Positions 11,124 to 30,443 are shown, counted from the stretch's first letter. The stretch is 52,534 nucleotides of DNA from Pseudomonadota bacterium (GCA_021813275.1 JAKALD010000001.1:1-52534); one strand, 5' to 3'. Notes: generated by a model from the sequence alone, not told the origin. A program made the numbers and translations.

Positions 11124-11147
11124 CAGATGCTATCGCATCACGCATCA
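11117..11147. promoter_or_regulatory. Candidate vapBC operator (GCATCA repeats with an inverted GATGC)
   Basis: GCATCA occurs at 11117, 11135 and 11142. GATGC (11126-11130) and GCATC (11135-11139) form an inverted repeat with a 4-nt spacer. The sites span and lie immediately upstream of the vapB start codon. Confidence 0.3.
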
Positions 11148-11213
11148 AAAGTCCAAGCGGTGGCCACGGCGCACCGGCGCGCTTGGCGTCGCGCCAGGCA
11201 GGCGGGCGCGCCG

Positions 11214-15328: not shown

Positions 15329-16905
15329 GGTGCCCCGTCCCGCACGAGCTCGAGCTTCAGGTCGCCCTTCGAGATGTAGATGCGGCCCACCTTGGGCCGG
15401 CGCGTCAGCTCCTGCACCAGGTGCACGATCGGATTGCGCGCCGCAAGCGGCAAGCTGGCCGGTACCTGCGCGATCATTTCGTCGACCTGCGGGCCTGCGA
15501 ACATGAATCGCAGCAGCCGCTCGTCGTCGCCGGCGTTCGGGTACTTGCGCCGCAGCTCGGCAACCCCCGGCGGCGGCAGCGAAGGCTCGAGCGCGATGCG
15601 CTTGGAGCCGTTCTCCACGATCCGGTCGAGCACCTGGGGTTCGACGGGCGCGAGCAGCTTTCCGTAGTAGCCGAGCGCGTATTTCTTGACCTCGTCGGGG
15701 ACGATTTCGTAGCGCTGCCCGCGGACCACGTTGAGCACCGCTTGCGTGCCGACCAGCTGGGCGAAGGGCGTGATCATGATCGGCCAGCCCAGCTCGCGCC
15801 GCACTCGCGCGCACTCCTCGAGCAGCTCGTCGAACTTGTGCAGAATGCCGGCGTGCTCGAGCTGCGAGCGGAAATTGCTCAGCATGCCTCCCGGGATTTG
15901 ATGCTCGTAGTGGAACGGGTCGTACTCGAGCGGCGCACCGAGCGGCTTGCCCTCGCGCTCGGCGATCCTCCGGAAATGCTCGCCCACCTCGTCGATCAGG
16001 GCGTCGTCCACGGCGATGCGGTAGCCGCGGTGGCGCAGGGCGCGCGCCATGGACTGCGTCGCCGGCTGCGCGGCGCCGTTGGCGAGCGGCGCGATCGAGC
16101 TGTGGATCTCGTCCACGCCGAGATCCGCGCCTTCCAGGTACACGAGAGGCGCGAGCCCGGTCAGGCAATGGCTGTGCAGCTCGAGCGGCGTGTCGCCGGC
16201 CACCGCGCGCAGCGCCGGAACGAGCGTCCGGATGCGCTCCGGGGTGAGCAGCCCGCCTGCGTCCTTGATCATGATCGCGTCGACCCGGCCACGCTCGATG
16301 AGATCCTGCGCCGTCTTCACGTAGAGCTCGTCGGTGTGCACCGGGCTGAGCGAATAGGCGAGCGCGCCGAAAACGCGCACTCCGAGGCGCTTGGCGACCC
16401 GGATGCTCGCAAGCATGTTGTCGACGTCGTTCAGGCCGTCGAAGGCGCCCACGACGCGAAATCCGTTCGCCACCAGTCGCTCGACCCACAGCTCGATGAT
16501 GTCGTCGGGCACGAGGTCGAAGCTCATGATGTTGCGGCTGCGGATCAGCGCGCGCAACGGCGTCTGCTGGCAGCGCTCGCGCATGAGGCGCACCCGCAGC
16601 CAGGGATCCTCCCTCAGGTAGCGCACGCACACGTCGAACTGGATCGCGCCGGCGAGATCGATCTGCGCGAAGCCGCAGCGATCCATGCGCTCGGCCACCG
16701 GCAGCATGTGCGCCGTGGTCATGCGCGTCGCCCACAGGCACTGGTGCGCGTCGCGCAGCGTGGTATCGATGATCCGGATCTCGCGGCCCTTGCGATCCCG
16801 CTCCTGCACGGGGCGCTCCCGGTGCGCGGGCGCGGCGCGCTTCACGGGGCGAGATCGCGCCGCGGCGTCAGCGCGCGGGGTCGATGAGGACAAGCGGCTG
16901 CCCAT
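15325..16905 (-). CDS. Biotin-dependent carboxyltransferase subunit (oxaloacetate decarboxylase alpha / pyruvate carboxylase B / transcarboxylase 5S type) lacking a biotinyl domain
   Basis: 526 aa. It has an HMGL-like barrel (IIDTTLRDAHQ, ...KDAGGLL, LELHSHCLTGLA) and a PYC_OADA-like middle region. There is no AMKM/EVMK motif at the C-terminus. The start is uncertain: ATG at 16905 overlaps the BCCP gene, and GTG at 16845 is the alternative. Confidence 0.85.
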   Translation of the reverse strand: MGSRLSSSTPRADAAARSRPVKRAAPAHRERPVQERDRKGREIRIIDTTLRDAHQCLWATRMTTAHMLPVAERMDRCGFAQIDLAGAIQFDVCVRYLREDPWLRVRLMRERCQQTPLRALIRSRNIMSFDLVPDDIIELWVERLVANGFRVVGAFDGLNDVDNMLASIRVAKRLGVRVFGALAYSLSPVHTDELYVKTAQDLIERGRVDAIMIKDAGGLLTPERIRTLVPALRAVAGDTPLELHSHCLTGLAPLVYLEGADLGVDEIHSSIAPLANGAAQPATQSMARALRHRGYRIAVDDALIDEVGEHFRRIAEREGKPLGAPLEYDPFHYEHQIPGGMLSNFRSQLEHAGILHKFDELLEECARVRRELGWPIMITPFAQLVGTQAVLNVVRGQRYEIVPDEVKKYALGYYGKLLAPVEPQVLDRIVENGSKRIALEPSLPPPGVAELRRKYPNAGDDERLLRFMFAGPQVDEMIAQVPASLPLAARNPIVHLVQELTRRPKVGRIYISKGDLKLELVRDGAP

Positions 16906-17395
16906 ACTCCACGAGCTCCCCGTCGGCGGCGAGAACGTCGAGCACCGTTCCCTTCGTTCCCGCCTTGACCGAATTGAACAGCTTCATCACCTCGACCAGG
17001 CACACGGGGTCCTCGGGCCCGACCTGGTCGCCGATTTCCACGAAAGGCGGCGCGCCCGGGGAGGCAGCCCGGTAGAAGGTTCCGAGCATCGGCGCGCGCA
17101 CGGCCGCGCAGCCTTCCGGAACGCGCACTTCTGACCGCGCGGCGAGCACCGGCCCGAACTCGGGCGCCTGCGCAGGATCGGCCGGCGCGGGGACTGCCGA
17201 AATGTCGGCGATGCGCGGCTCTGCCGGCACGCTCCATCCGCCCGAGGAGCGCCGCAGGTGGATCTTGAGGTCCGCGAACTCCACGCGCAGCTCGTCGAAC
17301 TGCCACTCATCGACGAGCTTCAGGATCCTAGCGACGTCGTCCTCGGTCAGCGCCACCGCACGTTCCCCCCGCCGCCTTGCTTGAGCGAAACCCAC
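16868..17395 (-). CDS. Biotin carboxyl carrier protein (BCCP)
   Basis: 175 aa. The C-terminal biotinyl domain carries the motif CLVEVMKLFNSV and is preceded by a Pro/Ala-rich linker. The start is uncertain: GTG at 17395 or GTG at 17356. Confidence 0.8.
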   Translation of the reverse strand: MGFAQARRRGERAVALTEDDVARILKLVDEWQFDELRVEFADLKIHLRRSSGGWSVPAEPRIADISAVPAPADPAQAPEFGPVLAARSEVRVPEGCAAVRAPMLGTFYRAASPGAPPFVEIGDQVGPEDPVCLVEVMKLFNSVKAGTKGTVLDVLAADGELVEYGQPLVLIDPAR

Positions 17396-17464
17396 CTGGG
17401 CCCCGGACCTCCCCTGCGGAAAGCGCCTTTTGCAGCCCAGTGAGGATCGGCCGGCGGCCCCTCC

Positions 17465-18496
17465 TTACTGCCAGTGGATCGCCTTCTCGGCGCGGTCGAG
17501 GTAGCTGTAGTCGATGTACTTGTTCATCCAGCCGTCGATGTCCTTGCCGAAGGAAGCCGGGATCTTCTTCGCGTCGATGACCGACTTCAGGATGATCCGT
17601 GTCGAGGGCATGTCGATCCGCGGGTCGGTCACGATGATCGACTTCATGGCATCCAGCACGATCGGCACTCCCTTGGGATTGTTCATCTTCTTGGCGACGA
17701 TCTCGGCCACCTGTTGCGGCGAGTGCTCCTTGATCCACTTCATGCCGCGCAGCGTCGCTTCCACGAAGCCTTCGACGGCCTTCGGGTGTGCTTTGGCGAA
17801 GGCCGGTGACACGATCACCTCGAGGCTTTCCGCGTTCTTGATCGGCGGAAGCTGGGCGATGTAGTGCAGCGCCGGGTTCTGGTGGATCGCGGTCGCGGCG
17901 GCGGGCTCCCACGAGATGAACGCGGCGATCTCACCCTTTTGCGCCATGACGGCGAAGTCCGATACCTTGGCGAACACCCGCTGGAACTTGATGTGCTGGG
18001 TGTTCTCGACGTAGGTCAGCACCGCATCCTGCACCGTACCCAGGCCGGGGCTGCCGACCTTCTGTCCGTTGAGCTCCTTGTACGAGTGGTACTTCTTGAG
18101 GCCCACCAGCGGGGCGTTGTACTTGGTGACCGACATCAGCATCTTGAAGTCCTGCCCGCGCGCGGCCATCTCCATGAACGGCGCGAGTCCGGCGGCGATC
18201 ATGTCGATCTCGCCGTTGGCGAAATGCAGCAGCCCTTCCGGGCCATTGTTGAAGGTGTGGCGCTCGATCTTGATGCCTGCGTCGGTGTAGTAGCCGAGCG
18301 CGTCGGCGACCCAGATGTTGGCGTAGTCGGCCTCCGAGCCGATCTCGTCACCCAGGCGTACGGTGGTGAGTGTCTTGCCGCCCTGAGCCCACACCGACGG
18401 CGTGACGCTCAGCGCGAGCCCGAATGCAAAGGCGGCCCCGAGCAGGCTGGAGAACAGCCGGCGTCCGCGGCGCGATACACGATCAGCGAATTGCAT
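17465..18496 (-). CDS. ABC transporter substrate-binding protein, NitT/TauT (NMT1/THI5-like) family
   Basis: 343 aa. It has an N-terminal signal peptide (LLGAAFAFGLALSVTPSVWA) and lies next to a matching permease and ATPase. Confidence 0.8.
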   Translation of the reverse strand: MQFADRVSRRGRRLFSSLLGAAFAFGLALSVTPSVWAQGGKTLTTVRLGDEIGSEADYANIWVADALGYYTDAGIKIERHTFNNGPEGLLHFANGEIDMIAAGLAPFMEMAARGQDFKMLMSVTKYNAPLVGLKKYHSYKELNGQKVGSPGLGTVQDAVLTYVENTQHIKFQRVFAKVSDFAVMAQKGEIAAFISWEPAAATAIHQNPALHYIAQLPPIKNAESLEVIVSPAFAKAHPKAVEGFVEATLRGMKWIKEHSPQQVAEIVAKKMNNPKGVPIVLDAMKSIIVTDPRIDMPSTRIILKSVIDAKKIPASFGKDIDGWMNKYIDYSYLDRAEKAIHWQ

Positions 18497-18583
18497 TTTC
18501 TTCCCTCCTCCGAGTTATCAGCTACCACTTCGACCCAGCGCGCGGCGCAGGCGCAGCGCGCCACATCCGTATGCCCGGTGGAC

Positions 18584-19378
18584 CTATCGACCGGAGCGCG
18601 ACGGCAAGGCGGAATTCAGCAGGCTGGCGAACTGCGTGCGCAGCCGCATGAACTCGGGGCTCAAGGTGTTGCGCGGCCGCGGCAGCGTGATCGGCACGTC
18701 GGCCAGGATCCGCGCCGGCTTGGCCGACAGCACGATGGTCCGATCCCCGAGGAACACGGCCTCCTCGAGGTTGTGCGTCACGAAGATGATGGTCCCCTTC
18801 TTGCGCTCCCAGATGCTCAGCACCTCGGCCTGCATCCGCTCGCGCGTGGGTTGATCGAGGCTGACGAATGGCTCGTCCATGAGGATGACGTCAGCGTCCG
18901 TGGCGAAGGCGCGCGCGATCGCCACGCGCTGCTTCATGCCGCCCGAGATCTGGTGCGGGTAATAGTCCTCGTAGCCGCGCAGATTGACGACCCCAAGAAT
19001 GTCGTCGACCACCCGCCTCACCTCGGCCTCGGGACGCTTTTTGATGCGCAGCCCGACGGCCACGTTGTTGCGCACGGTGAGCCACGGCAGGGTCGATGGC
19101 TCCTGAAATACGAACGAAATGTTGTGCCGCTTCGGATCCACCGGCTCGCCGTGGACCAGGACGCGCCCGCGGGTGGGCTTCAGCAGGCCGGCCAGGATGT
19201 CGAGCAGCGTGGTCTTGCCGCAGCCGCTCGGACCGCACAGACAGAGGAACTCGTTCTCGCGGACCGCGAACTGCAGCCCGTCGTGCACGCATAGCGCGCC
19301 GAAGCTGTGCGCGATGTCCACGTCCACCTTCACCTCGCGCGCGGCGGCGTCCCGCGGCCTGGGGAGCGTAGCCATCAT
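18584..19378 (-). CDS. ABC transporter ATP-binding protein, NitT/TauT family
   Basis: 264 aa after trimming to MMATLPRP. Walker A GPSGCGKTT, signature ISGGMKQRVAIARA and Walker B ILMDEPF are present. Confidence 0.85.
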   Translation of the reverse strand: MMATLPRPRDAAAREVKVDVDIAHSFGALCVHDGLQFAVRENEFLCLCGPSGCGKTTLLDILAGLLKPTRGRVLVHGEPVDPKRHNISFVFQEPSTLPWLTVRNNVAVGLRIKKRPEAEVRRVVDDILGVVNLRGYEDYYPHQISGGMKQRVAIARAFATDADVILMDEPFVSLDQPTRERMQAEVLSIWERKKGTIIFVTHNLEEAVFLGDRTIVLSAKPARILADVPITLPRPRNTLSPEFMRLRTQFASLLNSALPSRSGR

Positions 19379-19380
19379 GC

Positions 19381-20247
19381 CTACAGCGTCACCTGCCAGC
19401 GCCACCGAAAGAGGTATTTCTCCAGCAGCAGCAAGATCTCGTTCAGCACGAACCCGATCAGCCCGATCAGCACCATGGAGACGACCACCTCGGGAATGCG
19501 CAGCAGCTCGGAGTAGTTCACCATCATGCGGCCGAGGCCGATCGGCGTACCTCCGGTGAGCTCGGCGGCGACGATCGTCATCCATGCGGTGCCCAAGCCG
19601 ACTCGCATGCCTCCGAGGATGTCTGGCAGGACGGTCGGCACCACGATGCGCGCAAGCACGTAGGCCTTGGTTGCGCCGTAGACCAGCGCCACTTTGCGGT
19701 GAATCGGCTCAACGCGCGCCACGCCGATCAGGGTCGCCGTAAACACGGGGAAGAAGGCGCCGAGGAAGATCAGGAACGCGTAGCGCGTCAGGCCGGTGAA
19801 CAGGATGATGGCGAGCGGGATCCACGCGATCGGCGGAATGAAGCGGAAGGGCTCGATCACGGCACGAACGTTGCGGTAGACGGAGTTGTACAGCCCCATG
19901 AGCAGGCCGAGCGGCACCCCGAACACGACGCCGAGGCCGAAGCCGACGAGCAGGCGGTACACGCTCGCCCAGATGTGGCTCCACAGGCTGTTACCGAGCA
20001 CGTCGCCGTGGCGGGCCAGATCGATGAACGCTTCGTAAATCGCGGCCGGCCCTGGCAGGTACGGCGAGTGATACTCGGCGGCGCCGATCTGCCACACGAC
20101 GAGCGCGACGGCGAGCGACACGCAGTTCCACAGCACCGTCCACCAGCGGGAACGAGCTCTCGGCCCGGACGGCGCAACCGCGGCCGGCGGCGCCGGCTCC
20201 TGCGGCTCCGCCCGCACGCTGCTCAGCACCGGCGCGTGCCCGGACAT
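19381..20247 (-). CDS. ABC transporter permease, NitT/TauT family
   Basis: 288 aa after trimming to MSGHAPVL. It has multiple hydrophobic helices and the EAA-like loop VYGATKAYVLARIVVPTVLP. Confidence 0.8.
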   Translation of the reverse strand: MSGHAPVLSSVRAEPQEPAPPAAVAPSGPRARSRWWTVLWNCVSLAVALVVWQIGAAEYHSPYLPGPAAIYEAFIDLARHGDVLGNSLWSHIWASVYRLLVGFGLGVVFGVPLGLLMGLYNSVYRNVRAVIEPFRFIPPIAWIPLAIILFTGLTRYAFLIFLGAFFPVFTATLIGVARVEPIHRKVALVYGATKAYVLARIVVPTVLPDILGGMRVGLGTAWMTIVAAELTGGTPIGLGRMMVNYSELLRIPEVVVSMVLIGLIGFVLNEILLLLEKYLFRWRWQVTL

Positions 20248-20415
20248 CAGGATCGCATCCCGGCTCGCGAGCGCAGGGACGTGCCACGCCGCGACGCGGG
20301 CCGCGCTTTGGCTTGGCGCTGCAGATGCATCACTCCTCCTCGTTCCGGGACCCGCTCGGCGCGCAGCCCTGCGCGCTCGGCGAAGCCGCGCCGTTCGTCC
20401 GCGGTAGACGCTACT

Positions 20416-20425
20416 ACTATATAGT
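20416..20425. promoter_or_regulatory. Perfect 10-bp palindrome ACTATATAGT in the divergent permease/GntR intergenic region (candidate GntR/HutC-type operator or -10 element)
   Basis: The palindrome was read directly from the sequence. It sits in an AT-rich island within an otherwise GC-rich spacer. Confidence 0.25.
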
Positions 20426-20443
20426 TTTGGTGTCAACGCAAAC

Positions 20444-20456
20444 GGCAAACGTTTTC
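20444..20456. promoter_or_regulatory. LacI-type operator-like motif GGCAAACGTTTTC
   Basis: It is identical to the 13-mer at 25626-25638 and closely resembles the perfect palindrome GCAAACGTTTGC at 25787-25798. Confidence 0.4.
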
Positions 20457-20534
20457 GCTGCGACCCGCGGTCCCGCCCGCGACGCAAGGAAGCGGTATGC
20501 TAACCGTCGCCGTCGCCAAGGCCGACATCCCGAC

Positions 20535-21386
20535 ATGAGCCCCGCGCCACCGGAACGCCGGCCCGAGAAGTTCTTCGCCAAGTACCGGCCGAGCGTCGCC
20601 CACGGCGGCCCGAAATATCGGATCCTGCGCGACGCCCTCATCGCGGCGATCGAGGACGGCTACTGGGAAGTCGGCGACCGACTTCCGACCGAGCTGGAGC
20701 TGACGGCGATGACGCCTTACAGCCTCGGAACCGTGCAGCGCGCGATCCAGGCCCTGGTCGCCGAAGGTTTCGTCACCCGCAAGCCGCGCAGCGGCAGTTT
20801 CGTTGCTCCCGGGCACCGGCGCATCGGCGGCCCCTGGCTGTTCCGCTTCCTGGCCGAGGACGGGAGCGGTTTTCTCCCGATGTTCACCAAGGTGGTCGCC
20901 CGTCGGCAGGTGAAGGAGCGCGGCCAGTGGTTCGACTGGCTGACGCAGGGCGAGCCGCGCAAGCGGCTATTGCGCATCGACCGGCATATCCGGGTCGACA
21001 GCGAGCTGATTGCGTTCAACCGCGTCTATCTGGATCCCCAGCGCTATCCCGTGATTGCCTCCGCCCCGACCCGGGAGCTGGACGGCGCCAACTTCGTGCA
21101 CATGATCGAGCACGCCTACCGCCTGCCGGTAAACCACATCGCGCATACCGTGCGTTGCGCGATGCTGCCCGAGGTGGCGCGGCGCGCAATCGGCTTGAAG
21201 AAGCGCACGCTCGGCACGATTGTCGAGATCGCCGCGAGCGCCGGGCGGAGCCGCCCGGTGTCCTACCAACAAATCTTCGTGCCGCCGACCGCCTATCGTC
21301 TCTACATTTCGGAGACGAGCGCGGACTGGCACACCACGCGCTCGGGCGAGCCGCTGCCCGAGGCGCGCGGGGCCGCCTCCGGTTAG
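20535..21386 (+). CDS. GntR family transcriptional regulator (HutC/UTRA-type)
   Basis: 283 aa after trimming to MSPAPPER. The winged helix-turn-helix reads LPTELELTAMTPYSLGTVQRAIQALVAEGFVTRKPRSGSFV and is followed by a UTRA-like effector domain. Confidence 0.8.
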   Translation: MSPAPPERRPEKFFAKYRPSVAHGGPKYRILRDALIAAIEDGYWEVGDRLPTELELTAMTPYSLGTVQRAIQALVAEGFVTRKPRSGSFVAPGHRRIGGPWLFRFLAEDGSGFLPMFTKVVARRQVKERGQWFDWLTQGEPRKRLLRIDRHIRVDSELIAFNRVYLDPQRYPVIASAPTRELDGANFVHMIEHAYRLPVNHIAHTVRCAMLPEVARRAIGLKKRTLGTIVEIAASAGRSRPVSYQQIFVPPTAYRLYISETSADWHTTRSGEPLPEARGAASG

Positions 21387-22327
21387 GCGCAGGAGCCGCC
21401 CGCCAGCGTTTCGGATAGGAAACGCGCCGCCAGCGCATGCGCTGCGCGCGCGCCCCGCACCATTCCGCCCATATTGAAGAAGCCGTGGATCATGCCGGGG
21501 AAGACCTCGAGCGAGACATCGTTGCCGGCACCTGCCAGGGCCCCGGCATAGGCTCGGGCATCGTCGGCCAGCGGATCGCACTCCGCGGCGATGATCAGGC
21601 AGCGCGGCTGCCCGGCGAGGGTGCGCGCCGCAACCGGTGCGAATCGCGGGTCGTCGTCCCGGTCGCGCCCCTGCGTGTAGTTCCGATAGAACCACTCGAG
21701 GTCGTTGAGGGTCAAGAAATGGCCCTCTGCAAACTGTTGCTTCGAGGCGCTCGGCCTTCGCCCGATGGCGCTCGGGTAGACGAGGATCTGCGCCGCGGGA
21801 AGCGGCAGATCAGCCTCACGCGCGCGCAGCGACACGACGGCCGCGAGGGTCGCACCGGCGCTGTCGCCCGCGATCGCCAGATTCGCCGGCCGCTCCGCGC
21901 CCTCGCCCAAGCGCGCCAGCGCCCAATCGTACGCGCGCACGGCGTCGTCGACCGCAGCTGGAAACGGATGCTCCGGCGCGAGCCGGTAGCCCGCCGAGAA
22001 CACTCTGCAACCGCAGCGCGCCGCGAACATGCGGCAGACAATGTCGCTCGTCTCGATGCTGCCCACGCAGTAGCCGCCGCCGTGCAGCCACAGCAATCCG
22101 CCGGCGCCCGGAGCACGCCTCTCCGGTGCGTACTCGCGCACGACCAGCCCGGCTCCGAGCGGCTCATCGCTCGCCGCGACCGACGGCTCGGGCGCGAGGT
22201 CGAGCAGGCGCAAGCCCTTGTCGTAGGCCTTGCGAGCCGCGTCGATCGGCTGTGTCCATAGCGGCGGCGTGTTGTTGCGCCGCATGCCCTCCAGGATGCG
22301 CGCGACGTCCGGGTCGAGCCCTTGCAT
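21383..22327 (-). CDS. Alpha/beta hydrolase, hormone-sensitive-lipase (Abhydrolase_3) family esterase
   Basis: The oxyanion motif is LHGGGY and the nucleophile elbow is GDSAGA. The acid and His residues fall in CDPLADD and IHGFF. Start chosen at MQGLDPDV (22327); the track ORF begins at 22363, overlapping the upstream gene. Confidence 0.8.
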   Translation of the reverse strand: MQGLDPDVARILEGMRRNNTPPLWTQPIDAARKAYDKGLRLLDLAPEPSVAASDEPLGAGLVVREYAPERRAPGAGGLLWLHGGGYCVGSIETSDIVCRMFAARCGCRVFSAGYRLAPEHPFPAAVDDAVRAYDWALARLGEGAERPANLAIAGDSAGATLAAVVSLRAREADLPLPAAQILVYPSAIGRRPSASKQQFAEGHFLTLNDLEWFYRNYTQGRDRDDDPRFAPVAARTLAGQPRCLIIAAECDPLADDARAYAGALAGAGNDVSLEVFPGMIHGFFNMGGMVRGARAAHALAARFLSETLAGGSCA

Positions 22328-22335
22328 GGCCGGAA

Positions 22336-22578
22336 TCAAGGCGCGGCCGGCTCCACGCGGCACACGACGCCACCGACCTCCACGATGTCCTCGACGTTCG
22401 CGACAATCTCGACCAGCTTGCCGTCGAACGGCGCCGGGATCTCGGTGGCGACCTTCTCGGTCTCGATGTCGTAGAGCGGCTCGCCTTGCTTGAACGGATC
22501 TCCTGGCCCCTTGTGCCAGACCTTGATCGTGGCCTCTTCCATGTTCATTCCGATCCTGCCGAGCTTCAGCTCAACCAT
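22336..22578 (-). CDS. Free-standing lipoyl-attachment domain protein
   Basis: 80 aa, consisting of a single biotin/lipoyl-attachment fold. The lipoyl-lysine context is DIETEKVATEI, resembling the canonical ETDKA motif. The protein ends in a linker-like EPAAP. Its start overlaps the E1 beta stop by 8 nt. Confidence 0.8.
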   Translation of the reverse strand: MVELKLGRIGMNMEEATIKVWHKGPGDPFKQGEPLYDIETEKVATEIPAPFDGKLVEIVANVEDIVEVGGVVCRVEPAAP

Positions 22579-23563
22579 GGCGGCGCGCTCCTTCGGAGCC
22601 GGCGATCTCGAGCACCGCGCCGACTATCCTCTGGTGACCGGGTATCACGGCCTTCTCCAGCACCGGCGAATACGGGATCGCGACGTCCTCGACCGCGACG
22701 CGCCTGATCGGCGCCTTGAGCAGGTGAAAGCCACGCTCGGCCACGGTCGCGGCGATCTCGCTCGCGACACTGCACGACTTGCGCGCCTCGTCGACCACGA
22801 CCAGGCGGCCGGTGCGGCGCAGCGAGCCGAGGATGGCGTCGTAGTCCATGGGCACCACCGTGCGCGGATCGATCAGGCTCGCGGAGATACCCTGCTTCGC
22901 CAGCTCGTCGCAGGCCTTGAGCGCGGGCTTCACCATGCTGCCGAGCGCCACCACGGTGACGTCGTCACCGGCGCGCTTCTCCTCCGCCTTGCCGAGCGGA
23001 ATCACGTAGTCGCCGTCGGGCACCTCGCCGGCCTCGCCGCCGCGGCCGGCGGCCTGCAGAAGGAACACGGGGTTGTCGTCGCGAAGCGCGGCCTTGACCA
23101 GGCCCTTGGCATCGCCCGGCGCAGCCGGCATGACGATCTTGACGCCACCGAGGTTCATCAGCAGCGGATGCATGCTGTCGGAGTGCTGGGCCGCGACCGA
23201 GCGCCCGCCGCCGATCATCGCCATGTACAGGATCGGCAGCTTCACCTGCCCGCCGAGCATGTAGCGCAGCTTCGCCGCCTGGTTCGCGATCGCGTCGAAG
23301 CCGGTGTAGATGAAGTTGCCGTAGAACAGATGGCAGATCACGCGCAGGCCGGTGGCCGCCGCGCCCACCGCCATGCCGCTCATGACCGACTCCGAGATCG
23401 GCGTGTTGCGCACCCGCGCCGCCCCGAAGCGCTCGATCAGCCCGCGCGTGTCGCCCACCGGGCTGATGTGCACGTCCTCGCCCATCACGATGATCGACGG
23501 GTCGCGCTCCATTTCCTCGGCGATCGCCTCGTTGATCGCCTGCACCATGCGTTTCTTCGCCAT
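22571..23563 (-). CDS. 2-oxoacid/acetoin dehydrogenase E1 component, beta subunit
   Basis: 330 aa after trimming to MAKKRMVQAINEAI. It shows a transketolase-like pyrimidine-binding and C-terminal domain pattern (VRNTPISE..., PVFLL...). Confidence 0.9.
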   Translation of the reverse strand: MAKKRMVQAINEAIAEEMERDPSIIVMGEDVHISPVGDTRGLIERFGAARVRNTPISESVMSGMAVGAAATGLRVICHLFYGNFIYTGFDAIANQAAKLRYMLGGQVKLPILYMAMIGGGRSVAAQHSDSMHPLLMNLGGVKIVMPAAPGDAKGLVKAALRDDNPVFLLQAAGRGGEAGEVPDGDYVIPLGKAEEKRAGDDVTVVALGSMVKPALKACDELAKQGISASLIDPRTVVPMDYDAILGSLRRTGRLVVVDEARKSCSVASEIAATVAERGFHLLKAPIRRVAVEDVAIPYSPVLEKAVIPGHQRIVGAVLEIAGSEGARRHG

Positions 23564-23571
23564 CGGCTGCC

Positions 23572-24546
23572 TCACGCAAACATGTGTTGGAACGCCGCTT
23601 CCGGCTGCGGCCACGGCGCCGCGGCCGCGTACTCGAACGCCGCCTGCACCGCGGCGCGCTCCTTGTCCTCGGCGGCCGCGATCGCATCTGGCGCGATCCT
23701 CGCGCCGCGCAACGCCGCGAGCGCGACGCGCAGCGGCTCGCGCTCGCGGCGCCGCTCGACTTCCTCGTCGCTGCGGTAGCTCTTCGCGAGGAACGACTTC
23801 TCCGCCTCGACGTGACCGCGCAGGCGGTAGGTGCGCATCTCGAGGAGTGTCGCGCCACCGCCGCCGCGCGCGCGCTCGATCGCCTCGCCCGCCGCGGACC
23901 AGACTTCCCGCACGTCGTTGCCGTCGACCGGCTCGCCCGGTATGCCGAAAGGCGTGGCGCGCTTCCAGATCTCGCCCGCGGTCACCGTCGCTGTGGGCGA
24001 GAACTCCGAGAAGCCGTTGTTCTCGCACACCAGCACGAGCGGCAGCTTCCACAGCGCGGCGACGTTGAGCGATTCGAGCAGCACGCCCTGGTTCGCCGCG
24101 CCGTCGCCGAAGAAAACCACTGCCACGTTGCGCGTGCCGCGCGTCTGCGCCGACAGGGCCGCGCCGGTGGCGAGCGCGATGCCGCCGCCGACGATGCCGT
24201 TCGCGCCGAGGATGCCCTTCGAGACGTCGGCGACGTGCATCGACCCGCCCTTGCCCCCGCAGACCCCGGACGCGCGGCCGTAGACCTCGGCGACGAGCTT
24301 GCGGATTTCGTCGCTCTTGGCGAGGAAATGGCCGTGGCCGCGGTGCGTGCTGCAGATCCAGTCCTGGTCCGACAGGTGCGCGCACACCCCGACCGCCACG
24401 GCCTCCTGGCCGATGTACAGATGCACCGGGCCGGGCAGCTCGCCCGCCGCCTGCACCTGCGCCAGCCGCTCTTCGACCGTCCGGATGCGGAACATCCGGC
24501 CGTACAGCTCGAGCAGCTTCCCGCTTGTCAGTTCCTGAACGCTCAT
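23572..24546 (-). CDS. 2-oxoacid/acetoin dehydrogenase E1 component, alpha subunit (TPP-binding)
   Basis: 324 aa. The TPP motif is FFGDGAANQG...CENNGF, and THRGHGH is also present. Confidence 0.9.
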   Translation of the reverse strand: MSVQELTSGKLLELYGRMFRIRTVEERLAQVQAAGELPGPVHLYIGQEAVAVGVCAHLSDQDWICSTHRGHGHFLAKSDEIRKLVAEVYGRASGVCGGKGGSMHVADVSKGILGANGIVGGGIALATGAALSAQTRGTRNVAVVFFGDGAANQGVLLESLNVAALWKLPLVLVCENNGFSEFSPTATVTAGEIWKRATPFGIPGEPVDGNDVREVWSAAGEAIERARGGGGATLLEMRTYRLRGHVEAEKSFLAKSYRSDEEVERRREREPLRVALAALRGARIAPDAIAAAEDKERAAVQAAFEYAAAAPWPQPEAAFQHMFA

Positions 24547-24598
24547 ATGGTCGAATTCCTCGTTTTCGTTGAGGGTGATCCAATGCCCCCGCCGCGCC

Positions 24599-25630
24599 TC
24601 ACGCGGCTGGAGGCGGGGCGGTCGAGCTGCGCACGACCAGCTCGGCTTCGAGCCTCACGTGGTCGGGCGTCGGGGTTCCCGCGAGGCGCGCGACGAGGAA
24701 GTCCGCGGCGCACAGGCCGATCTCGGCCGCGGGCACTCGCATGGTGGTCAGCGATGGAACGATGTGTGAAGAAAGCTCGACGTCGTCGAAGCCGGCGATC
24801 GACAGCGACTGCGGTACGCTTACCCCCTGCGCGATGCACTCGTAGAGCGCGCCGTGCGCCAGGATGTCGTTGCCGCACACCACCGCGGTCGGCGGCTCAC
24901 GCTGAGCGAGCAGCATGCGCAGCGCGCTGCGCCCGTCCGCGATGCTGTACGGCCGCTCGACGATCCGCGCCGCCGGCAGCTTGATGCCGCGCGCCGCGAG
25001 CGCATCGACTAGGCCTGCCTTGCGCTGCGCCGCGCGGTCGTTACCGCGCGTGATGCCGGCGATCATGGCGAAGCGCCGGTGGCCGAGGTCGTACAGATAG
25101 TTCGCCAGGCGCATCATCGCCAGGCGATTGTCGAAACCGATGCACGGCGCCTGGCCCGCGCCGTCGTAGATCCAGGTGTGCACGAACGGGATCGCCCGCG
25201 CCTCGATCAGGCGCGCGACTTCGGAGCCGTGCTCGGCGCCCACCAGGACGATGCCGTCGATGCCGCGCTCGACGAGCGACTGCAGCTCCGCGGACTCGCG
25301 CTCGGCCTGGTAGTCCGTGCTCGCGAGCAGCAGCGTGTAGCCGTGCGTGTTGAGCCGGCTCTGCAGCGCGTGCAGGGCCTTCGCGAACATCGCGTTGTCG
25401 ATCGTCGGCACGATTGCGCCGATGGTGCCGAACTGCTTCGAGACGAGCGAGCGCGCCGCCCGATCGGGCACGTACTTCAGCGCCTCGGCCGTCGCGCGGA
25501 TGCGCGCGACGGTCTCGGCCTTGACGCGGCCCGGGTTAGTCAGCGCGCGGGAGACCGTGGCGATGGACACGCCCGCCTTGCGCGCGACGTCCTTGATGGT
25601 GGCGGATTTTCCGCCGGCCGCTCTAGGCAA
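24599..25630 (-). CDS. LacI family transcriptional regulator
   Basis: 343 aa. The N-terminal helix-turn-helix reads ATIKDVARKAGVSIATVSRAL and is followed by a periplasmic-binding-protein-like effector domain. The apparent start is a TTG, because no in-frame ATG lies near the N-terminus. Confidence 0.85.
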   Translation of the reverse strand: MPRAAGGKSATIKDVARKAGVSIATVSRALTNPGRVKAETVARIRATAEALKYVPDRAARSLVSKQFGTIGAIVPTIDNAMFAKALHALQSRLNTHGYTLLLASTDYQAERESAELQSLVERGIDGIVLVGAEHGSEVARLIEARAIPFVHTWIYDGAGQAPCIGFDNRLAMMRLANYLYDLGHRRFAMIAGITRGNDRAAQRKAGLVDALAARGIKLPAARIVERPYSIADGRSALRMLLAQREPPTAVVCGNDILAHGALYECIAQGVSVPQSLSIAGFDDVELSSHIVPSLTTMRVPAAEIGLCAADFLVARLAGTPTPDHVRLEAELVVRSSTAPPPAA

Positions 25631-25638
25631 ACGTTTTC
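25626..25638. promoter_or_regulatory. LacI-type operator-like motif GGCAAACGTTTTC overlapping the LacI start codon
   Basis: It is an 11/12 match to the palindrome GCAAACGTTTGC and is identical to 20444-20456. The position fits autoregulation. Confidence 0.4.
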
Positions 25639-25751
25639 CACCTTCTCAATCGAAACGTCGCGATTCTATCAAGGACCAGGCCGCGCGGCGGAGCGTCGAT
25701 TCGACACGTCCGGCGCCCCCTCCCCGTAACGACCGTTGTTTCGCGTTCTGC

Positions 25752-25781
25752 TTGACAAGCGGTCGCCGAGCCCGTTAGCGT
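25752..25781 (+). promoter_or_regulatory. Candidate sigma70 promoter of the SDR/ABC/beta-hydroxyacid dehydrogenase operon
   Basis: A perfect -35 TTGACA (25752-25757) is followed by an 18-nt spacer and TAGCGT (25776-25781). The operator palindrome lies immediately downstream. Confidence 0.4.
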
Positions 25782-25786
25782 TCCGT

Positions 25787-25798
25787 GCAAACGTTTGC
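25787..25798. promoter_or_regulatory. Perfect 12-bp palindrome GCAAACGTTTGC, candidate LacI-family operator
   Basis: It fits the LacI/GalR operator pattern with a central CG. It sits between the candidate -10 element and the first gene of the plus-strand operon, divergent from the LacI gene. Confidence 0.55.
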
Positions 25799-25875
25799 CA
25801 TTCGCGCCCGCCTGGAGAAAGAGCGGCCGAAGGCGCGGTCTTCTTGATTCGATTGCACCGGAGGTCGGAGCGCAC

Positions 25876-26712
25876 ATGAGCCACCCCTCCAAAGCGGGGC
25901 GCGCGCGCTCGAGCGGCCGAGCGGGCCCCACCGCGTGCGCGGGTACCGACCTGAGCGTGGTGATCAGCGGGGGCGCAAGCGGCATCGGCGCGGCCACCGC
26001 ACGCCGCATCGTCGCCGCCGGCGGCCACGTGGGCATTCTGGACGTCAACGGCGCCCTCGCGAGGCAGGTCGCGAAGGGGCTGGGCGAGCGCGCCGTCGCG
26101 GTAACAGCCGACGTCCTGGACGAAGGCCAGGTCCGGCGCGCGCACCGCCGCTTCGCAACCGCGCTCCCCGACATTCGCGGCCTGGTCAATTGCGCCGGCA
26201 TGCCGCAGGTGCCGCGGACGATCGAGGAATACGCGGTCGAGGACTGGTCCGCGGTCCTCGACTCGCATCTGCGCACGACGTACGTCGCGTGCCGCGAGTT
26301 CGGAGGCGCGATGGCGCGCCGCGGGGCCGGCGCCATCGTTAATCTCGCTTCGGTGCTCGCGTTTCGGCCCGGGCCGGTGCTCGCGTACGGTCCGGCCAAG
26401 GCCGCGGTCGTGAGTCTCACCGAAAGCCTGGCGGTGCAGTGGGCGCACCGCGGCGTGCGCGTCAACGCGGTAGCGCCGGGATGGACTGACACCCCGTTCC
26501 TGCGGCCCAAGGAGCGCAAGGGCGAGCGCGACCTGACGCCCATCATTCGCGCGACTCCGCTCGGGCGGCTGCTCAAGCCGCAGGAGATCGCCGAGGTGAT
26601 CGTGTTCCTGCTCTCAGCCGCGGCGAGCGGCGTGACAGGAGCGACCGTCGCCTGCGACGGCGGCGTGATGGCCGGCAGCGGCTGGATGCCCTATGGCGGG
26701 ATCCCCGCGTAG
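25876..26712 (+). CDS. SDR family oxidoreductase
   Basis: Start trimmed to MSHPSKAG. The cofactor motif is ISGGASGIGAA and the catalytic motif is YGPAKAAV. Confidence 0.8.
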   Translation: MSHPSKAGRARSSGRAGPTACAGTDLSVVISGGASGIGAATARRIVAAGGHVGILDVNGALARQVAKGLGERAVAVTADVLDEGQVRRAHRRFATALPDIRGLVNCAGMPQVPRTIEEYAVEDWSAVLDSHLRTTYVACREFGGAMARRGAGAIVNLASVLAFRPGPVLAYGPAKAAVVSLTESLAVQWAHRGVRVNAVAPGWTDTPFLRPKERKGERDLTPIIRATPLGRLLKPQEIAEVIVFLLSAAASGVTGATVACDGGVMAGSGWMPYGGIPA

Positions 26713-27499
26713 CCCGGGCCGCGGCGCGCCGCGCGCGCGGGTGCAGCGCTCCGCGGTCGCCGCAGGCCTCGTCGTGGCGCTGCTCGCCGCGTGGTACCTC
26801 ACGACCGGGCCCTTGGAGCTGGTCAACTCGCTGCAATTCCCTTCGCCAGACGACGCGTACGAAGCGCTCAGGCAGCTGACGAGCCCGGGCTACGCCGGCG
26901 CGACGCTCGCGCGCCACATCGCCGACAGCCTCGCGCTGGTGGGACTGGGATTCGTCGCGGCGACGCTCACCGGAATTCCGCTCGGCATCCTGATGGGCTC
27001 GAGCCGGCTCGCGGAGGCCTACATCAACCCGGTCTTCCAGCTGATCCGGCCGATCGCGCCGATCGCCTGGATCCCGCTCACGATCCTGTGGTTCGGCCTC
27101 GGCACGGCGGCAAAGGTGTTCGTGGTCTGGCTGGCCGCGTTCTCGCCGGCGGCGATCAACGCCTTCACGGGAGTGCGCAACGTCGATCCGGTGCTGATCG
27201 CGGCCGCACGGGTGCACGGCGCCTCGGCGCGCCAGGTACTCTCGCAGGTCGTGATACCGGCGTCCCTGCCGACCATCTTCACCGGCCTGCGGGTATCCCT
27301 CCAGGCCTGCTGGATGGTGCTGGTGGCCGCGGAGCTGGTCGGGTCGTTCGCCGGGCTCGGCCACATCATGATCATTGCGACCCGCGATCTCAATTCCGGA
27401 ATGATCTTCGTGGCGATGGCGTGCGTGGCGCTGCTCGGCGTGGCGTTGAGCGTCGCGCTCGCGTGGGTCGAGCGCTGGGCGGTTCCATGGCGACGCTAG
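26693..27499 (+). CDS. ABC transporter permease 1, NitT/TauT family
   Basis: 268 aa. Hydrophobic helices are present, with PIAWIPLTILWFGLG and the EAA loop AARVHGASARQVLSQVVIPASLP. The start is uncertain: ATG at 26693 or GTG at 26741. Confidence 0.8.
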   Translation: MAGSPRSPGRGAPRARVQRSAVAAGLVVALLAAWYLTTGPLELVNSLQFPSPDDAYEALRQLTSPGYAGATLARHIADSLALVGLGFVAATLTGIPLGILMGSSRLAEAYINPVFQLIRPIAPIAWIPLTILWFGLGTAAKVFVVWLAAFSPAAINAFTGVRNVDPVLIAAARVHGASARQVLSQVVIPASLPTIFTGLRVSLQACWMVLVAAELVGSFAGLGHIMIIATRDLNSGMIFVAMACVALLGVALSVALAWVERWAVPWRR

Positions 27500-28308
27500 G
27501 CGCCCCGGCCCGCGCGCACGCGGCACCGCAGGCGCTTTCCGACTCGGCCGCGTGGCGGACGATCGCCTCGACGCTGGGCGTCGCGACGTTCATCGGGGTC
27601 TGGGTCGCCGTGACCTCCCTCGGGCTGGTGCCGCCGACGTTCCTGCCCAGCCCGACCGCGGTGCTGGCAAGAATCGTGGACCTCACGCACGAGCCGTACT
27701 CCGGTTCGTTGCTGCAGGCACATCTGCTCGCCAGCCTGCGCAAATTCGGGTTGAGCTACCTGCTTGCGGTCGTGATCGGCGTTCCGCTCGGCCTGCTCAT
27801 GGGGCGCTTCCGCTTCGTCGATTGGCTGGTCTCGCCTGTGTTCGAGGGACTGCGCTTCATTCCGCCGATTGCGTGGGTGCCCTTCTCCATCCTCTGGTTC
27901 GGCACCGGATTCCTCGCTCCGACCCTCGTGATCTTTGCCGGGGCCTTCTCACCCTGCGTGTTAAACGCCTACCGCGGCGCGAAGCTCATCGACCGGCAGC
28001 TCATCGAAGCCGCGCAGACCCTCGGCGCGCGGGGCTGGACCATGCTCGGCCAGGTCATGCTGCCGGCGGCGCTTCCGCACATCGTGGCCGGGCTACGCGT
28101 AAGCGCCGGCTTCGGCTGGCAGTCGCTCATCGGGGCCGAGCTGATCGTGGGCTCGACCGGCTTGGGCTACATGATCGTTCAGGGTGAAAGCAATCTGGCG
28201 CCGGCCGTCGTGATCGCCGGAATGGCGACCATCGGCGTCGTCGGGGCGCTGATCGACTACACCATGCGTGCCCTGGAGGACTGGATCCGGCGCGATTGGG
28301 GTCGCTAG
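27487..28308 (+). CDS. ABC transporter permease 2, NitT/TauT family
   Basis: 273 aa after trimming to MATLGAPA. It contains PIAWVPFSILWFGTG and the EAA loop AAQTLGARGWTMLGQVMLPAALP. It overlaps permease 1 by 13 nt. Confidence 0.8.
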   Translation: MATLGAPARAHAAPQALSDSAAWRTIASTLGVATFIGVWVAVTSLGLVPPTFLPSPTAVLARIVDLTHEPYSGSLLQAHLLASLRKFGLSYLLAVVIGVPLGLLMGRFRFVDWLVSPVFEGLRFIPPIAWVPFSILWFGTGFLAPTLVIFAGAFSPCVLNAYRGAKLIDRQLIEAAQTLGARGWTMLGQVMLPAALPHIVAGLRVSAGFGWQSLIGAELIVGSTGLGYMIVQGESNLAPAVVIAGMATIGVVGALIDYTMRALEDWIRRDWGR

Positions 28309-28361
28309 AGCATGTCCATCGGAGCGGGAGGCGCTCCATGTCACCACGAGGAGGAGAGGAA

Positions 28362-29435
28362 ATGAGAAGCCGAGCATCGAAGACGCTAGTGGGTGTGCTG
28401 CTGGCCGCACTGGCCGGCGCGGGCGCGAGCGCTGCCGCGCGCGCGGCCGACCCGAGTCCATTCCCGGTCCGGGTGAGCCAGCAGCCCCAGCGCTGGGCGC
28501 TGGAGTGGTACATCGCGACGCAAAAGGGCTGGTGGCAGCAGCTCGGCCTGCAGCCGACAATGGTGACGTTCGCCTCCGGAGCGCCGCAGGTCGCCGCCGG
28601 CGCGTCGGGTTCGTGGGACGTCGGCGGCGCGGGTGACCTGCCGGCCGTGCTCGGCGGCAGCCGCTACCGCCTGCAGACCATCGCCATCGCGGACGAGGAG
28701 GCCGCGATCATCACGATCATGGCGACCAAGGACAAGGCCGAGCAGTACGCGAAGAACCCGGCCCTCATCAAGGGCAAGACCATCCCGGTCACGACCAATT
28801 CGACCGGCCAATGGGGCGCGGCGGTTTGCCTGGAGAAGAAATTCGGCCTCAAGCCGGGCGACTACCAGTTCGTCAACCTTTCGCCGCCGGAGATCAATGC
28901 CGCGGTGAGCAGCGGCCGGTACGACATTTCCGAGGTGTGGGCGCCGAACACCTACATTCTCGACTCGACGATCGGGGCCAAGGTGATTTGCGACGGCAAG
29001 GAGATGGGCCTGCCGATCACGAGCAACCTGTTTGCCACGCCGGCCTTCGCCAAGAAACATCCCGAGATCGTCGCCAAGTTCCTTGCGGTGTATCTGCGCG
29101 CGGTCGCGTGGGAGCGCGCCCACCCCAAGGAGACCGTCGAGATGCTGGGTGCGTTCTTCAACTCGGTCGGGGTCAATATTCCCGAAAAGTACCTGCCCGT
29201 GGAGCTGCACAACCGGCCTGCGTTCACGCTGCAGGAGCAGCTGAAGATCTTCCGCGGCAGCGCGAGCGGCAAGTCGCTGGCGGCCGACTGGTCGAATCAG
29301 GTCGCGCAGTTCATGACCTCGGTCGGCGTGATCAACAAGGTTCCGGACGCGAAGGGCTACGTGACCGACAAGTATCTGCTGATGATCGAGCACGATCCGA
29401 AGCTGAAGGCCTTCGCCGAGAACGCCTCGGACTAA
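28362..29435 (+). CDS. ABC transporter substrate-binding protein, NitT/TauT (NMT1-like) family
   Basis: Start trimmed to MRSRASKT, with a GAGGAGAGGAA ribosome-binding site upstream. The signal peptide is LLAALAGAGASAAARA. Confidence 0.8.
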   Translation: MRSRASKTLVGVLLAALAGAGASAAARAADPSPFPVRVSQQPQRWALEWYIATQKGWWQQLGLQPTMVTFASGAPQVAAGASGSWDVGGAGDLPAVLGGSRYRLQTIAIADEEAAIITIMATKDKAEQYAKNPALIKGKTIPVTTNSTGQWGAAVCLEKKFGLKPGDYQFVNLSPPEINAAVSSGRYDISEVWAPNTYILDSTIGAKVICDGKEMGLPITSNLFATPAFAKKHPEIVAKFLAVYLRAVAWERAHPKETVEMLGAFFNSVGVNIPEKYLPVELHNRPAFTLQEQLKIFRGSASGKSLAADWSNQVAQFMTSVGVINKVPDAKGYVTDKYLLMIEHDPKLKAFAENASD

Positions 29436-29630
29436 GCGCCACCGCCAGCTCGGTCGCGGCTAGTCGCCGGCGCGCTCGCGTCGGCGGCCGCCACGGCCGG
29501 TCGGCGCGTTTCATCGTGCGTGGGCCGACGCGCCCGCCCGGGCGTCATAATCGGGGTCACCGCGCACGCGTGCCGCAAACGGATACGCGCTCCAGCATCC
29601 GGCGCGGCGTCGGGCAAGGGAACAACAATT

Positions 29631-30428
29631 GTGAGCTCCATCCAATTCGAGCGAGTCGTACGCACGTTCACGCGCAACGGGCAAGACGTGCGAGCCGTGG
29701 ACGAGGTCAGCTTCGTGGTCGCGGAGAGGGAATTCGTCGCAATCGTGGGGCCGTCCGGCTGCGGCAAGACCACGCTGCTGCGCATGGCGGCGGGACTGGA
29801 CTTTCCGACCGGCGGTGCCGTACGAGTCGGAGACCGGCAGATCGACGGGCCCGGGTCGGACCGCGCGGTGGTCTTTCAGCAGTTCGCACTGTTCCCCTGG
29901 AAGACCGTGGCGGACAACATCGCTTTTGGGCTCAAGTGCCGGGGGACTGCGGAGAGCGCCAGACAGGAGATCGTCTCGCACTATGTCGCGCTGATGGGGC
30001 TGCAGGGCTACGAGCGCGCCTTCCCGCACCAGCTCTCGGGCGGCATGCAGCAACGCGTGGCGATCGCGCGCAGCTACGCGCTCGAGCCGAGTGTGCTTCT
30101 GATGGACGAACCCTTCGGCGCCCTCGACGCGCAGACCCGCGTCGGGATGCAGGAGGAGCTCGTGCGCCTCTCGCGGATCAATCCGCGCACGGTGCTATTC
30201 ATCACCCACTCCGTCGAGGAAGCCGTCTATCTGGCCGATCGCGTCGTCGTCATGACGCGGCGGCCGGGGCGTATTCGTGAGATCGTGGAGGTCACGCCGG
30301 TCCGGCGGCGCGAGGGCTGGGACGCCTGCGAGCGCATCGAGGACGTGATGGACCAGGAGTCGTTCGTACACCTGCGCACGCACATCTGGAAGCTGCTGCG
30401 CGAGCAGCACGGCGCGTCCGCGCACTGA
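29631..30428 (+). CDS. ABC transporter ATP-binding protein, NitT/TauT family
   Basis: 265 aa from a GTG start (VSSIQFERV). Walker A GPSGCGKTT, signature LSGGMQQRVAIARS and Walker B LLMDEPF are present. Confidence 0.85.
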   Translation: MSSIQFERVVRTFTRNGQDVRAVDEVSFVVAEREFVAIVGPSGCGKTTLLRMAAGLDFPTGGAVRVGDRQIDGPGSDRAVVFQQFALFPWKTVADNIAFGLKCRGTAESARQEIVSHYVALMGLQGYERAFPHQLSGGMQQRVAIARSYALEPSVLLMDEPFGALDAQTRVGMQEELVRLSRINPRTVLFITHSVEEAVYLADRVVVMTRRPGRIREIVEVTPVRRREGWDACERIEDVMDQESFVHLRTHIWKLLREQHGASAH

Positions 30429-30443
30429 GCCGAGAGAGGAACC

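Follow-up and report, generated by a model that had tools for sequence, protein, structure and literature searches.

Can a single repressor tie together two neighbouring catabolic operons, one built around a biotin carrier and the other around a lipoyl carrier? The question is raised by a window of 52,534 nucleotides from a Pseudomonadota bacterium (GCA_021813275.1, JAKALD010000001.1:1-52534), the term window denoting the whole stretch of DNA that was analysed, which is contig C354 of a 3.67-Mb draft genome with 376 contigs and 69.8% GC. Over a few kilobases this window carries three copies of a short palindromic box, together with a gene for a LacI-family regulator, encoded at 24599-25630 and named LacI-1 here. 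A first-pass annotation of this DNA had proposed that one LacI regulator binds all of these sites, so that three adjacent operons between about 13.2 and 31.3 kb would form one substrate-responsive unit using both a biotin and a lipoyl carrier.

The reading that we favour is narrower, and on the strength of the sequence comparisons given below we regard it as probable. Two of the boxes, O1 and O2, would be operators of LacI-1 in the spacer between its own gene and a divergent operon, and the third, O3, would be a species-specific addition that brings a LacI-1 input to the neighbouring operon. The gene map was drawn from Pfam, NCBIfam, and the gene calls on conspecific contigs, and its content agrees with that given by the first-pass annotation. 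The features needed to follow the argument are listed below.

24599-25630, minus strand: lacI-1 (lacI in the following), 343 aa, TTG start; Pfam LacI helix-turn-helix (HTH) and Peripla_BP_1/3 domains
21383-25630, minus strand: lacI-E1alpha-E1beta-lipoyl-esterase operon, from Pfam, NCBIfam, and conspecific gene calls
25876-31322, plus strand: divergent operon for a short-chain dehydrogenase/reductase (SDR), two NitT/TauT-type permeases, an SsuA-like binding protein, an ATPase, and a beta-hydroxyacid dehydrogenase
13184-20247, minus strand: ABC transporter/biotin carboxyl carrier protein (BCCP)/carboxyltransferase/CoA-ligase operon, adjoining O3, from Pfam, NCBIfam, and gene calls
20535-21386, plus strand: gntR, of the GntR/HutC type, with Pfam GntR and UTRA domains
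25785-25800, no strand: O1, predicted primary LacI-1 operator GTGCAAACGTTTGCCA, containing the palindrome at 25787-25798; placed by matrix rank and spacer alignment
25625-25640, no strand: O2, predicted second LacI-1 operator AGGCAAACGTTTTCCA, containing the 13-mer copy at 25626-25638; placed by matrix rank and orthologues
20443-20458, no strand: O3, species-specific LacI-1-type box CGGCAAACGTTTTCGC, containing the 13-mer copy at 20444-20456; placed by matrix rank

The box and its two predicted operators in the lacI spacer

The starting observations hold: there are two exact copies of the 13-mer GGCAAACGTTTTC, one at 20444-20456 and one at 25626-25638, and a TTGACA-N18-TAGCGT element is closely followed by the perfect palindrome GCAAACGTTTGC at 25787-25798. 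The recurrence had been called unlikely to arise by chance, and the counts agree, since the 13-mer has 2 occurrences in the whole draft genome against 0.024 expected, with an expectation of 1.3e-4 within 20 kb. In addition, none of 100 shuffles reached the number of near-matches observed in the window. The 8-mer core AAACGTTT has 5 genome copies against 5.3 expected, three of the five lying inside 5.3 kb of the window. The description as a LacI-type operator motif is equally sound: the box is a genome-wide rare, even palindrome with a central CG, as LacI-family operators are (PMC4052901), and its 16 bp fall within the 16-22 bp that define such operators.

The comparison with other genomes covered eight orthologous LacI-1 loci (L001, L002, L032, and L045-L049; LacI identity 64-88%); in six of them (L001, L032, L002, L045, L046, and L047) boxes were sought up to 10 kb on each side of lacI, as far as the contig reaches. 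A weight matrix was built from sites of other genomes only (10 sites from five other loci; consensus TGGCAAACGTTTGCCA) and run over 3.66 million positions of the source genome. A genome scan of this kind had been proposed as a check by the first-pass annotation, and its two top ranks fell on O2 (rank 1) and O1 (rank 2), with scores of 24-26 bits.

Phylogenetic footprinting, another of the proposed checks, gave the same answer for the sites in the lacI spacer. The promoter-proximal box, corresponding to O1, is present in all eight orthologous loci, and seven of these (L001, L032, L002, L045, L046, L047, and L049) have a further box that either coincides with the lacI start or lies just ahead of it; LacI identity is 67-88% in the seven loci with a box pair in the lacI spacer. 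In six of these (all except L049) the scan finds two strong boxes and no more, each of them in the spacer that separates lacI from the divergent operon. The eighth locus, L048, with 64% identity, keeps the O1 box and has its second box downstream of lacI. In the spacer alignment, the O1 and O2 boxes stand out as invariant islands in otherwise diverged DNA, together with the -35 element and part of the -10. The genes downstream of the O1 promoter, encoding the SDR, the ABC importer, and the dehydrogenase, are also found in L001, L032, L002, L045, L046, L047, and L048.

The position of both boxes relative to the putative promoters is conserved as well.

25752-25781, plus strand: predicted SDR/ABC/dehydrogenase promoter, -35 TTGACA (25752-25757), 18-nt spacer, -10 TAGCGT (25776-25781)
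25663-25671, minus strand: predicted lacI extended -10 TGATAGAAT, aligned in seven loci

In all nine loci, namely the window and its eight orthologues, a TTGACA or TTGACT hexamer (CTTGACA when read towards the divergent operon) is followed at 17-18 nt by a TAnnnT hexamer, and the O1 box starts 3-10 nt past the latter, so that it probably covers the transcription start of the SDR/ABC/dehydrogenase operon. On the other side, an extended -10 of the form TGnTAnAAT or TGnCATAAT aligns in the window, L001, L032, L002, L045, L046, and L047, and in these seven the O2 box starts 17-24 nt past it. In the window, O2 lies at about +24 from the predicted lacI transcription start and overlaps both the lacI ribosome-binding site, AAGGTGG, and the TTG start codon (25630-25628, minus strand), a start also chosen by the gene caller on conspecific contigs. 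This placement of a box past a conserved extended -10 and at the lacI start implies autoregulation of the lacI-E1-lipoyl-esterase operon. Nothing terminator-like or promoter-like was found in the 52-nt gap between lacI and the E1 alpha gene, and the genes for E1 alpha, E1 beta, the lipoyl protein, and the esterase (21383-24546) are read as co-transcribed with lacI.

The two boxes most likely act separately. Their distances of 160, 168, 168, 182, 167, 134, and 177 bp correspond to 12.8-17.3 helical turns and show no helical phasing; moreover, the alignment of LacI-1 to E. coli LacI stops at residue 332 of 360, and LacI-1 ends four residues later. A DNA loop between O1 and O2 of the kind formed by the tetrameric Lac repressor was therefore rejected, given the unphased 134-182 bp and the lack of a C-terminal tetramerisation tail, and the variable spacing and the missing tail point to two independent operators, one for each divergent promoter. 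An additional operator had been suggested at 25648-25665; the 14/18 inverted repeat does exist there, but a repeat as good turns up in 33% of shuffled spacers and the orthologues do not keep it, so this candidate was discarded as being at chance level. No known RNA or riboswitch was matched by Rfam within 20150-26000.

Regarding the protein that would bind these boxes, LacI-1 combines PF00356 (residues 11-56) with PF00532/PF13377, i.e., an HTH and a periplasmic-binding-protein-like effector domain, and is similar over its full length to the structures of PurR, CcpA, and RbsR. It reaches no NCBIfam equivalog cut-off, and no named orthologous group fits. The source genome encodes five LacI-family proteins, and each of the other four has a distinct palindrome beside its own gene.

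38414-39448, plus strand: LacI-2, 50% identical to LacI-1; operator pair at 38164-38177 and 38309-38322, TGAAAGCGCTCTCA and the perfect palindrome TGGAAGCGCTTCCG
contig C210, about 4200-4560: palindromes TGTAACCGGTTACA and AGTAACCGCTTACA of a LacI paralogue
contig C375, about 4380-4760: palindrome TGGTAGCGCTACCA of a LacI paralogue
contig C74, about 2100-2480: palindromes TGTTAGCGATAACA and TGTTATCGCTAACA of a LacI paralogue

Because each paralogue is associated with a different palindrome, the box with the AAACGTTT core can be assigned to LacI-1, and cross-talk from the other paralogues was rejected on the same ground. The LacI-1 orthologues share a recognition helix, GVS(I/V/A)A(T/S)(V/A)SRAL, and most of them the hinge SLVSK (with A, G, or Y for S), and the paralogues differ from them chiefly at the hinge. 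The core AGCGCT of LacI-2, compared with AACGTT of LacI-1, suggests that the adjacent regulons of the two proteins are kept separate. The LacI-2 operator pair lies in the spacer facing a HisD-like/SDR/alcohol dehydrogenase (ADH)/ABC operon, and the palindromes on C210, C375, and C74, often in two copies, are found upstream of or overlapping the start of the respective paralogue gene.

It could be argued that the boxes are bound by another regulator, either one of these paralogues or a PurR-like protein. PurR and CcpA are the nearest solved relatives of LacI-1 (E about 1e-44), with E. coli PurR the closest of all (E 7e-45), and GCAAACGTTTGC is identical to the central 12 bp of the PUR box ACGCAAACGTTTGCGT at mapped E. 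coli PurR sites, e.g., purM and xanP (PMC3159470). However, the flanks of the LacI-1 box are TGG...CCA and those of the PurR box ACG...CGT, LacI-1 scores 187 bits against a PurR equivalog cut-off of 501, and the target genes serve catabolism and transport, with purine genes absent nearby; LacI-1 is thus placed outside the PurR regulon. PurR also needs a corepressor, whereas LacI-1 is more likely to be induced by a catabolic substrate. Since, in addition, the boxes accompany LacI-1 orthologues in eight other loci, seven times at or beside the lacI start, and the paralogues have palindromes of their own, binding by a different regulator appears extremely improbable, and we consider it very likely that O1 and O2 are operators of LacI-1.

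What the comparisons show directly are the box sequences, how rare they are, in which orthologues they are kept or missing, and where they lie relative to conserved promoter-like hexamers. That LacI-1 binds them, where transcription starts, in which direction the regulation works, and what kind of effector is involved are points that we infer. In the resulting scheme, LacI-1 bound at O1, over the transcription start, would block the operon for the SDR, the ABC importer, and the beta-hydroxyacid dehydrogenase, while LacI-1 at O2 would act as a promoter-proximal roadblock and autoregulate lacI-E1alpha-E1beta-lipoyl protein-esterase. A small-molecule effector would free the operators of LacI-1 and thereby turn on the two divergent operons; because of the SsuA-like binding proteins, this effector may be a C2-C4 sulfonate or a hydroxy-acid.

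The third box, in the gntR/ABC spacer

Whether O3 belongs to the same system is a more delicate matter, and two readings have to be set against each other. Either O3 works as an additional LacI-1 site, or it is a regulatory bystander, a look-alike of recent origin that is perhaps weakly bound and has no selected effect on gntR or the ABC/biotin operon; O1 and O2 would then still be genuine operators, but LacI-1 would not control the biotin and lipoyl modules jointly. One point against a bystander is the sequence of O3 itself, which matches O2 at 13/13 positions within 5.2 kb of the regulator gene, a coincidence that is very unlikely to arise without selection. As a match it is too good for chance, with p of about 1e-3. 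Its left half-site, GGCAAAC, is perfect, and in the right one, CGAAAAC, the only departure is at position -7, where the orthologous sites vary among themselves. With the orthologue-only matrix O3 ranks 6 genome-wide, and 3 among the sites with a central CG and an otherwise intact core; given six genome positions that score as high, the chance of finding one within this 287-bp spacer is about 3e-4. The box also lies in a regulatory spacer and not in coding DNA, which again argues against a bystander.

The position of O3 can be read both ways. The predicted promoter of the ABC/BCCP operon is placed as follows.

20408-20436, minus strand: predicted ABC/BCCP/carboxyltransferase/CoA-ligase promoter, -35 TTGACA (20436-20431), 17-nt spacer, -10 TAGCGT (20413-20408)

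O3 starts 6 nt upstream of this -35 element, with its centre at about -49, and it would lie at about +20 on the predicted gntR transcript. The latter position mirrors that of O2 on lacI and speaks for a function, while the former, upstream of the promoter and not over it, is what a bystander could show. With these two positions O3 could act on either gene: it may damp gntR, modulate the ABC/biotin operon, or do both, and would in any case place a LacI-1 input onto a GntR-controlled operon.

Several findings weigh against O3 as a working LacI-1 site, or against the reading of the locus as a whole, and some of them favour the bystander directly. The box is present in 0/7 of the orthologous gntR/ABC spacers that were compared (L001, L032, L033, L044, L050, and both copies in L051; GntR identity 65-80%), so that there is no footprint. 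L001 and L032 are included among them in spite of an identical gene order over the three operons and LacI proteins that are 87-88% identical. Within the species, O3 and a 100% identical spacer occur in six conspecific contigs from independent assemblies, which rules out an assembly artefact; as all copies are identical, however, they are uninformative on selection. The independent matrix gives O3 14.9 bits, compared with 24-26 bits for O1 and O2, and three sites elsewhere outrank it, one on contig C47 with a deviant core and two others without a central CG. A site upstream of the ABC -35 is not in the classical position for a repressor, and the ABC/biotin operon retains part of a conserved control module associated with GntR (see the next section). 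Regarding the promoters, a scan for sigma-70-like consensus called none in either spacer, and the -10 of 25752-25781 matches at 3/6 positions, which means that the promoters are drawn from conserved hexamers only. Finally, in a draft of 376 contigs further sites may be missing.

Taken together, we find a regulatory effect of O3 slightly easier to accept than to deny, and the bystander unlikely, though it deserves to be taken seriously. O3 looks like a lineage-specific gain through which the ABC/BCCP/carboxyltransferase operon, otherwise under GntR, may have come to respond to the LacI signal. It would have arisen through substitutions in this species alone and would most likely be bound by LacI-1. 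The segment that contains it has counterparts of similar length and different sequence (CGATGAA...) in the more distant loci and corresponds to a deletion in L001 and L032, which makes an origin by substitution in place the more likely one. A duplication or insertion of O2 found no support, as the identity stops at the 13-mer and the segment length matches that of the distant orthologues.

A scan of the draft for further regulon members returned weak candidates only. The best LacI-1-like match with a central CG outside the window, TGGAAGACGTTTTCCG, is at 1778-1793 of contig C47; it is considered weak because it has a G at -3, where all known half-sites have A. This box lies in the 98-bp spacer between bioB, for biotin synthase, and a gene pair for a CaiB-type CoA-transferase and a carboxyltransferase.

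Probable GntR control and a possible link between the biotin and lipoyl modules

The gntR spacers have a regulatory signature of their own. The element TGTCAACG and a TAGC(T/G)T hexamer are kept at fixed spacing in eight spacers, and the common module can be written as CTTGCTTTATAG(C/T)AG-N6/7-GCTACTAT-N14-TGTCAACG, with the following coordinates.

20385-20440 in the window: control module of the gntR/ABC spacer
13185-13260 in L001: the same module
9850-9910 in L044: the same module
5850-5910 in L050: the same module
3300-3350 and 5920-5975 in L051: the same module, two copies

In the leftward direction the module contains TTGACA and TAGC(T/G)T separated by 17 nt, the predicted ABC-operon promoter; in the rightward direction TTGCTT and TACTAT stand 16-17 nt apart and form the predicted gntR promoter. 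Across the two -10 elements runs the inverted repeat ATAGTAG-N7-CTACTAT, to which a GntR dimer could plausibly bind. The module accompanies gntR orthologues also where LacI-1 is missing (L044, L050, and L051), and the main control over the ABC/biotin operon is therefore likely to be exerted by GntR.

In the window's species alone, the otherwise invariant CTTGCTTTATAG arm, which is likely to serve both as one half of the GntR operator and as the gntR -35 element, has been replaced through substitutions, and 4 bp are missing. The loss of this arm and the gain of a LacI-1 box may point to a partial hand-over of control. The further step, that such a hand-over is in progress and that the biotin and E1/lipoyl halves of one catabolic pathway now answer a single signal, is a tentative idea that we think doubtful.

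The first-pass annotation had suggested that all three operons may form one LacI regulon, which as an ancestral arrangement would require that the 20444 site has been lost in the relatives. Part of that claim stands, because the sites in the lacI spacer are conserved for two divergent operons; the part that concerns the 20444 copy as a conserved link to biotin does not, since absence from orthologous spacers had been named there as the outcome that would break the link, and the site is lacking in all seven that were compared. In favour of an ancestral regulon, the gene order of the three operons is kept in L001 and L032, and the carboxyltransferase and E1/lipoyl modules are neighbours elsewhere too. 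L045 and L046 have a 5S-type carboxyltransferase, sometimes with a biotin carboxylase, beside the LacI-1/E1/lipoyl cluster in other arrangements, and in L051 the GntR orthologue is flanked by an ABC-E1 operon on one side and by an SDR-carboxyltransferase-BCCP-biotin carboxylase-BKACE operon on the other. However, several independent losses would be needed, both in close loci (L001 and L032) and in distant ones (L033, L044, L050, and L051), and the distant loci carry the different sequence mentioned above and not a decayed box; moreover, no LacI-1 box was found near the carboxyltransferase genes of L045 and L046. An ancestral three-operon regulon is thus very improbable. The absence of the site from orthologous spacers means that a regulon of this extent is not ancestral and would be at most a recent, species-specific extension.

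The proposal that the biotin and E1/lipoyl modules belong to one pathway draws independent support from their repeated co-location in other genomes; the shared LacI operator is not the source of this support. Returning to O3 as a recently gained site, the content of the LacI-1 regulon varies by lineage in other cases also, which puts the gain of a neighbouring site in character. In L048, from a Candidimonas metagenome-assembled genome, the second box (11136-11151) is found downstream of lacI, ahead of another operon of the ABC/HisD-like kind, and in L049 the box pair (9766-9781 and 9931-9946) controls a HisD/SDR/zinc-dependent ADH/ABC operon and not the E1 module.

Two short open reading frames (ORFs) lie in the gntR/ABC spacer. 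One of 13 codons (MLTVAVAKADIPT*; 20497-20538, plus strand) follows a ribosome-binding site, AAGGAAG, and its stop overlaps the gntR start (ATGA); L001 and L032 keep both its length and its C-terminal ADIPT*, suggesting translational coupling. The other, a basic ORF of 27 codons (MHLQRQAKARP...; 20247-20330, minus strand), has a strong ribosome-binding site, GGAGGAG, and a stop that overlaps the ABC permease start (TGATG). In L001, L032, L044, L050, and L051 the permease gene likewise follows a comparable ORF of 23-35 codons that has GGAGGAG ahead of it.

Related LacI-family systems and the genes of the three operons

The regulatory mechanism proposed here is standard for the LacI family, and the LacI-1 system would be an ordinary autoregulated local regulon. 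It resembles the local LacI-family regulons surveyed by Ravcheev et al. 2014 (PMC4052901) in several respects: the box is an even palindrome of 16 bp centred on CG, the regulator gene adjoins its target operon, diverges from it, and would be autoregulated, and no site is more than about 140 nt away from a start codon. The targets are again a few neighbouring catabolic and transport genes. In that survey 72% of the regulators were autoregulated and 93% of the regulons had 20 genes or fewer (PMC4052901). The difference is in the targets, which in the case of LacI-1 are not sugar-utilisation genes but an E1/lipoyl/esterase module, NitT/TauT-type importers, an SDR, and beta-hydroxyacid dehydrogenases.

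Two further systems can be compared with the locus. The gal control region of GalR has one operator, OE, upstream and another, OI, inside the first gene. The lacI spacer resembles it in offering two operators to one LacI-family dimer, one of them overlapping a coding start; unlike gal, its O1-O2 spacing has no conserved helical phase, and each operator would serve its own divergent promoter. FruR/Cra is the counterpart for O3. The effect of Cra depends on the position of its site, and it activates from sites upstream of the promoter. O3, upstream of the -35 at about -49, is placed like such activating sites, and in both cases a local LacI-family regulator would gain a site before further genes in a narrow lineage. 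The FruR/Cra regulon has expanded stepwise (PMC4052901); in comparison, O3 is a single extra site, next door and in one species.

With these results, an uncharacterised LacI-family regulator is provided with a testable regulon of about eleven target genes, together with two promoters and a consensus for the operator. These targets form an unusual catabolic module, with E1 alpha/beta, a free lipoyl protein, an esterase, and sulfonate-type ABC importers. The compound that releases LacI-1 is probably the pathway substrate or an early intermediate, which makes the repressor a handle for finding that substrate. In addition, O3 would illustrate on a small scale how regulons of adjacent operons become rewired in nature.

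The individual genes of the two minus-strand operons, assigned with Pfam and NCBIfam, are as follows.

23572-24546, minus strand: E1 alpha
22571-23563, minus strand: E1 beta
22336-22578, minus strand: lipoyl protein of 80 aa
21383-22327, minus strand: HSL-type esterase
19381-20247, minus strand: ABC permease
18584-19378, minus strand: ABC ATPase
17465-18496, minus strand: NMT1/SsuA-like binding protein
16868-17356, minus strand: BCCP-like protein
15325-16905, minus strand: 5S-type carboxyltransferase
13184-15328, minus strand: ADP-forming acyl-CoA ligase

In the divergent operon, the best NCBIfam match of the beta-hydroxyacid dehydrogenase is sulfolactaldehyde reductase, under the cut-off. The architecture of the E1 module differs between loci. 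In L047 (1019-6026) and L048 (2454-7464) the E1 subunits are fused into a single protein of 733-741 aa, and the lipoyl domain is fused to E3-binding and Abhydrolase_1 domains, as in AcoC; the window, in contrast, has split E1 alpha and beta subunits, a free 80-aa lipoyl protein, and an esterase of the HSL type (Abhydrolase_3).

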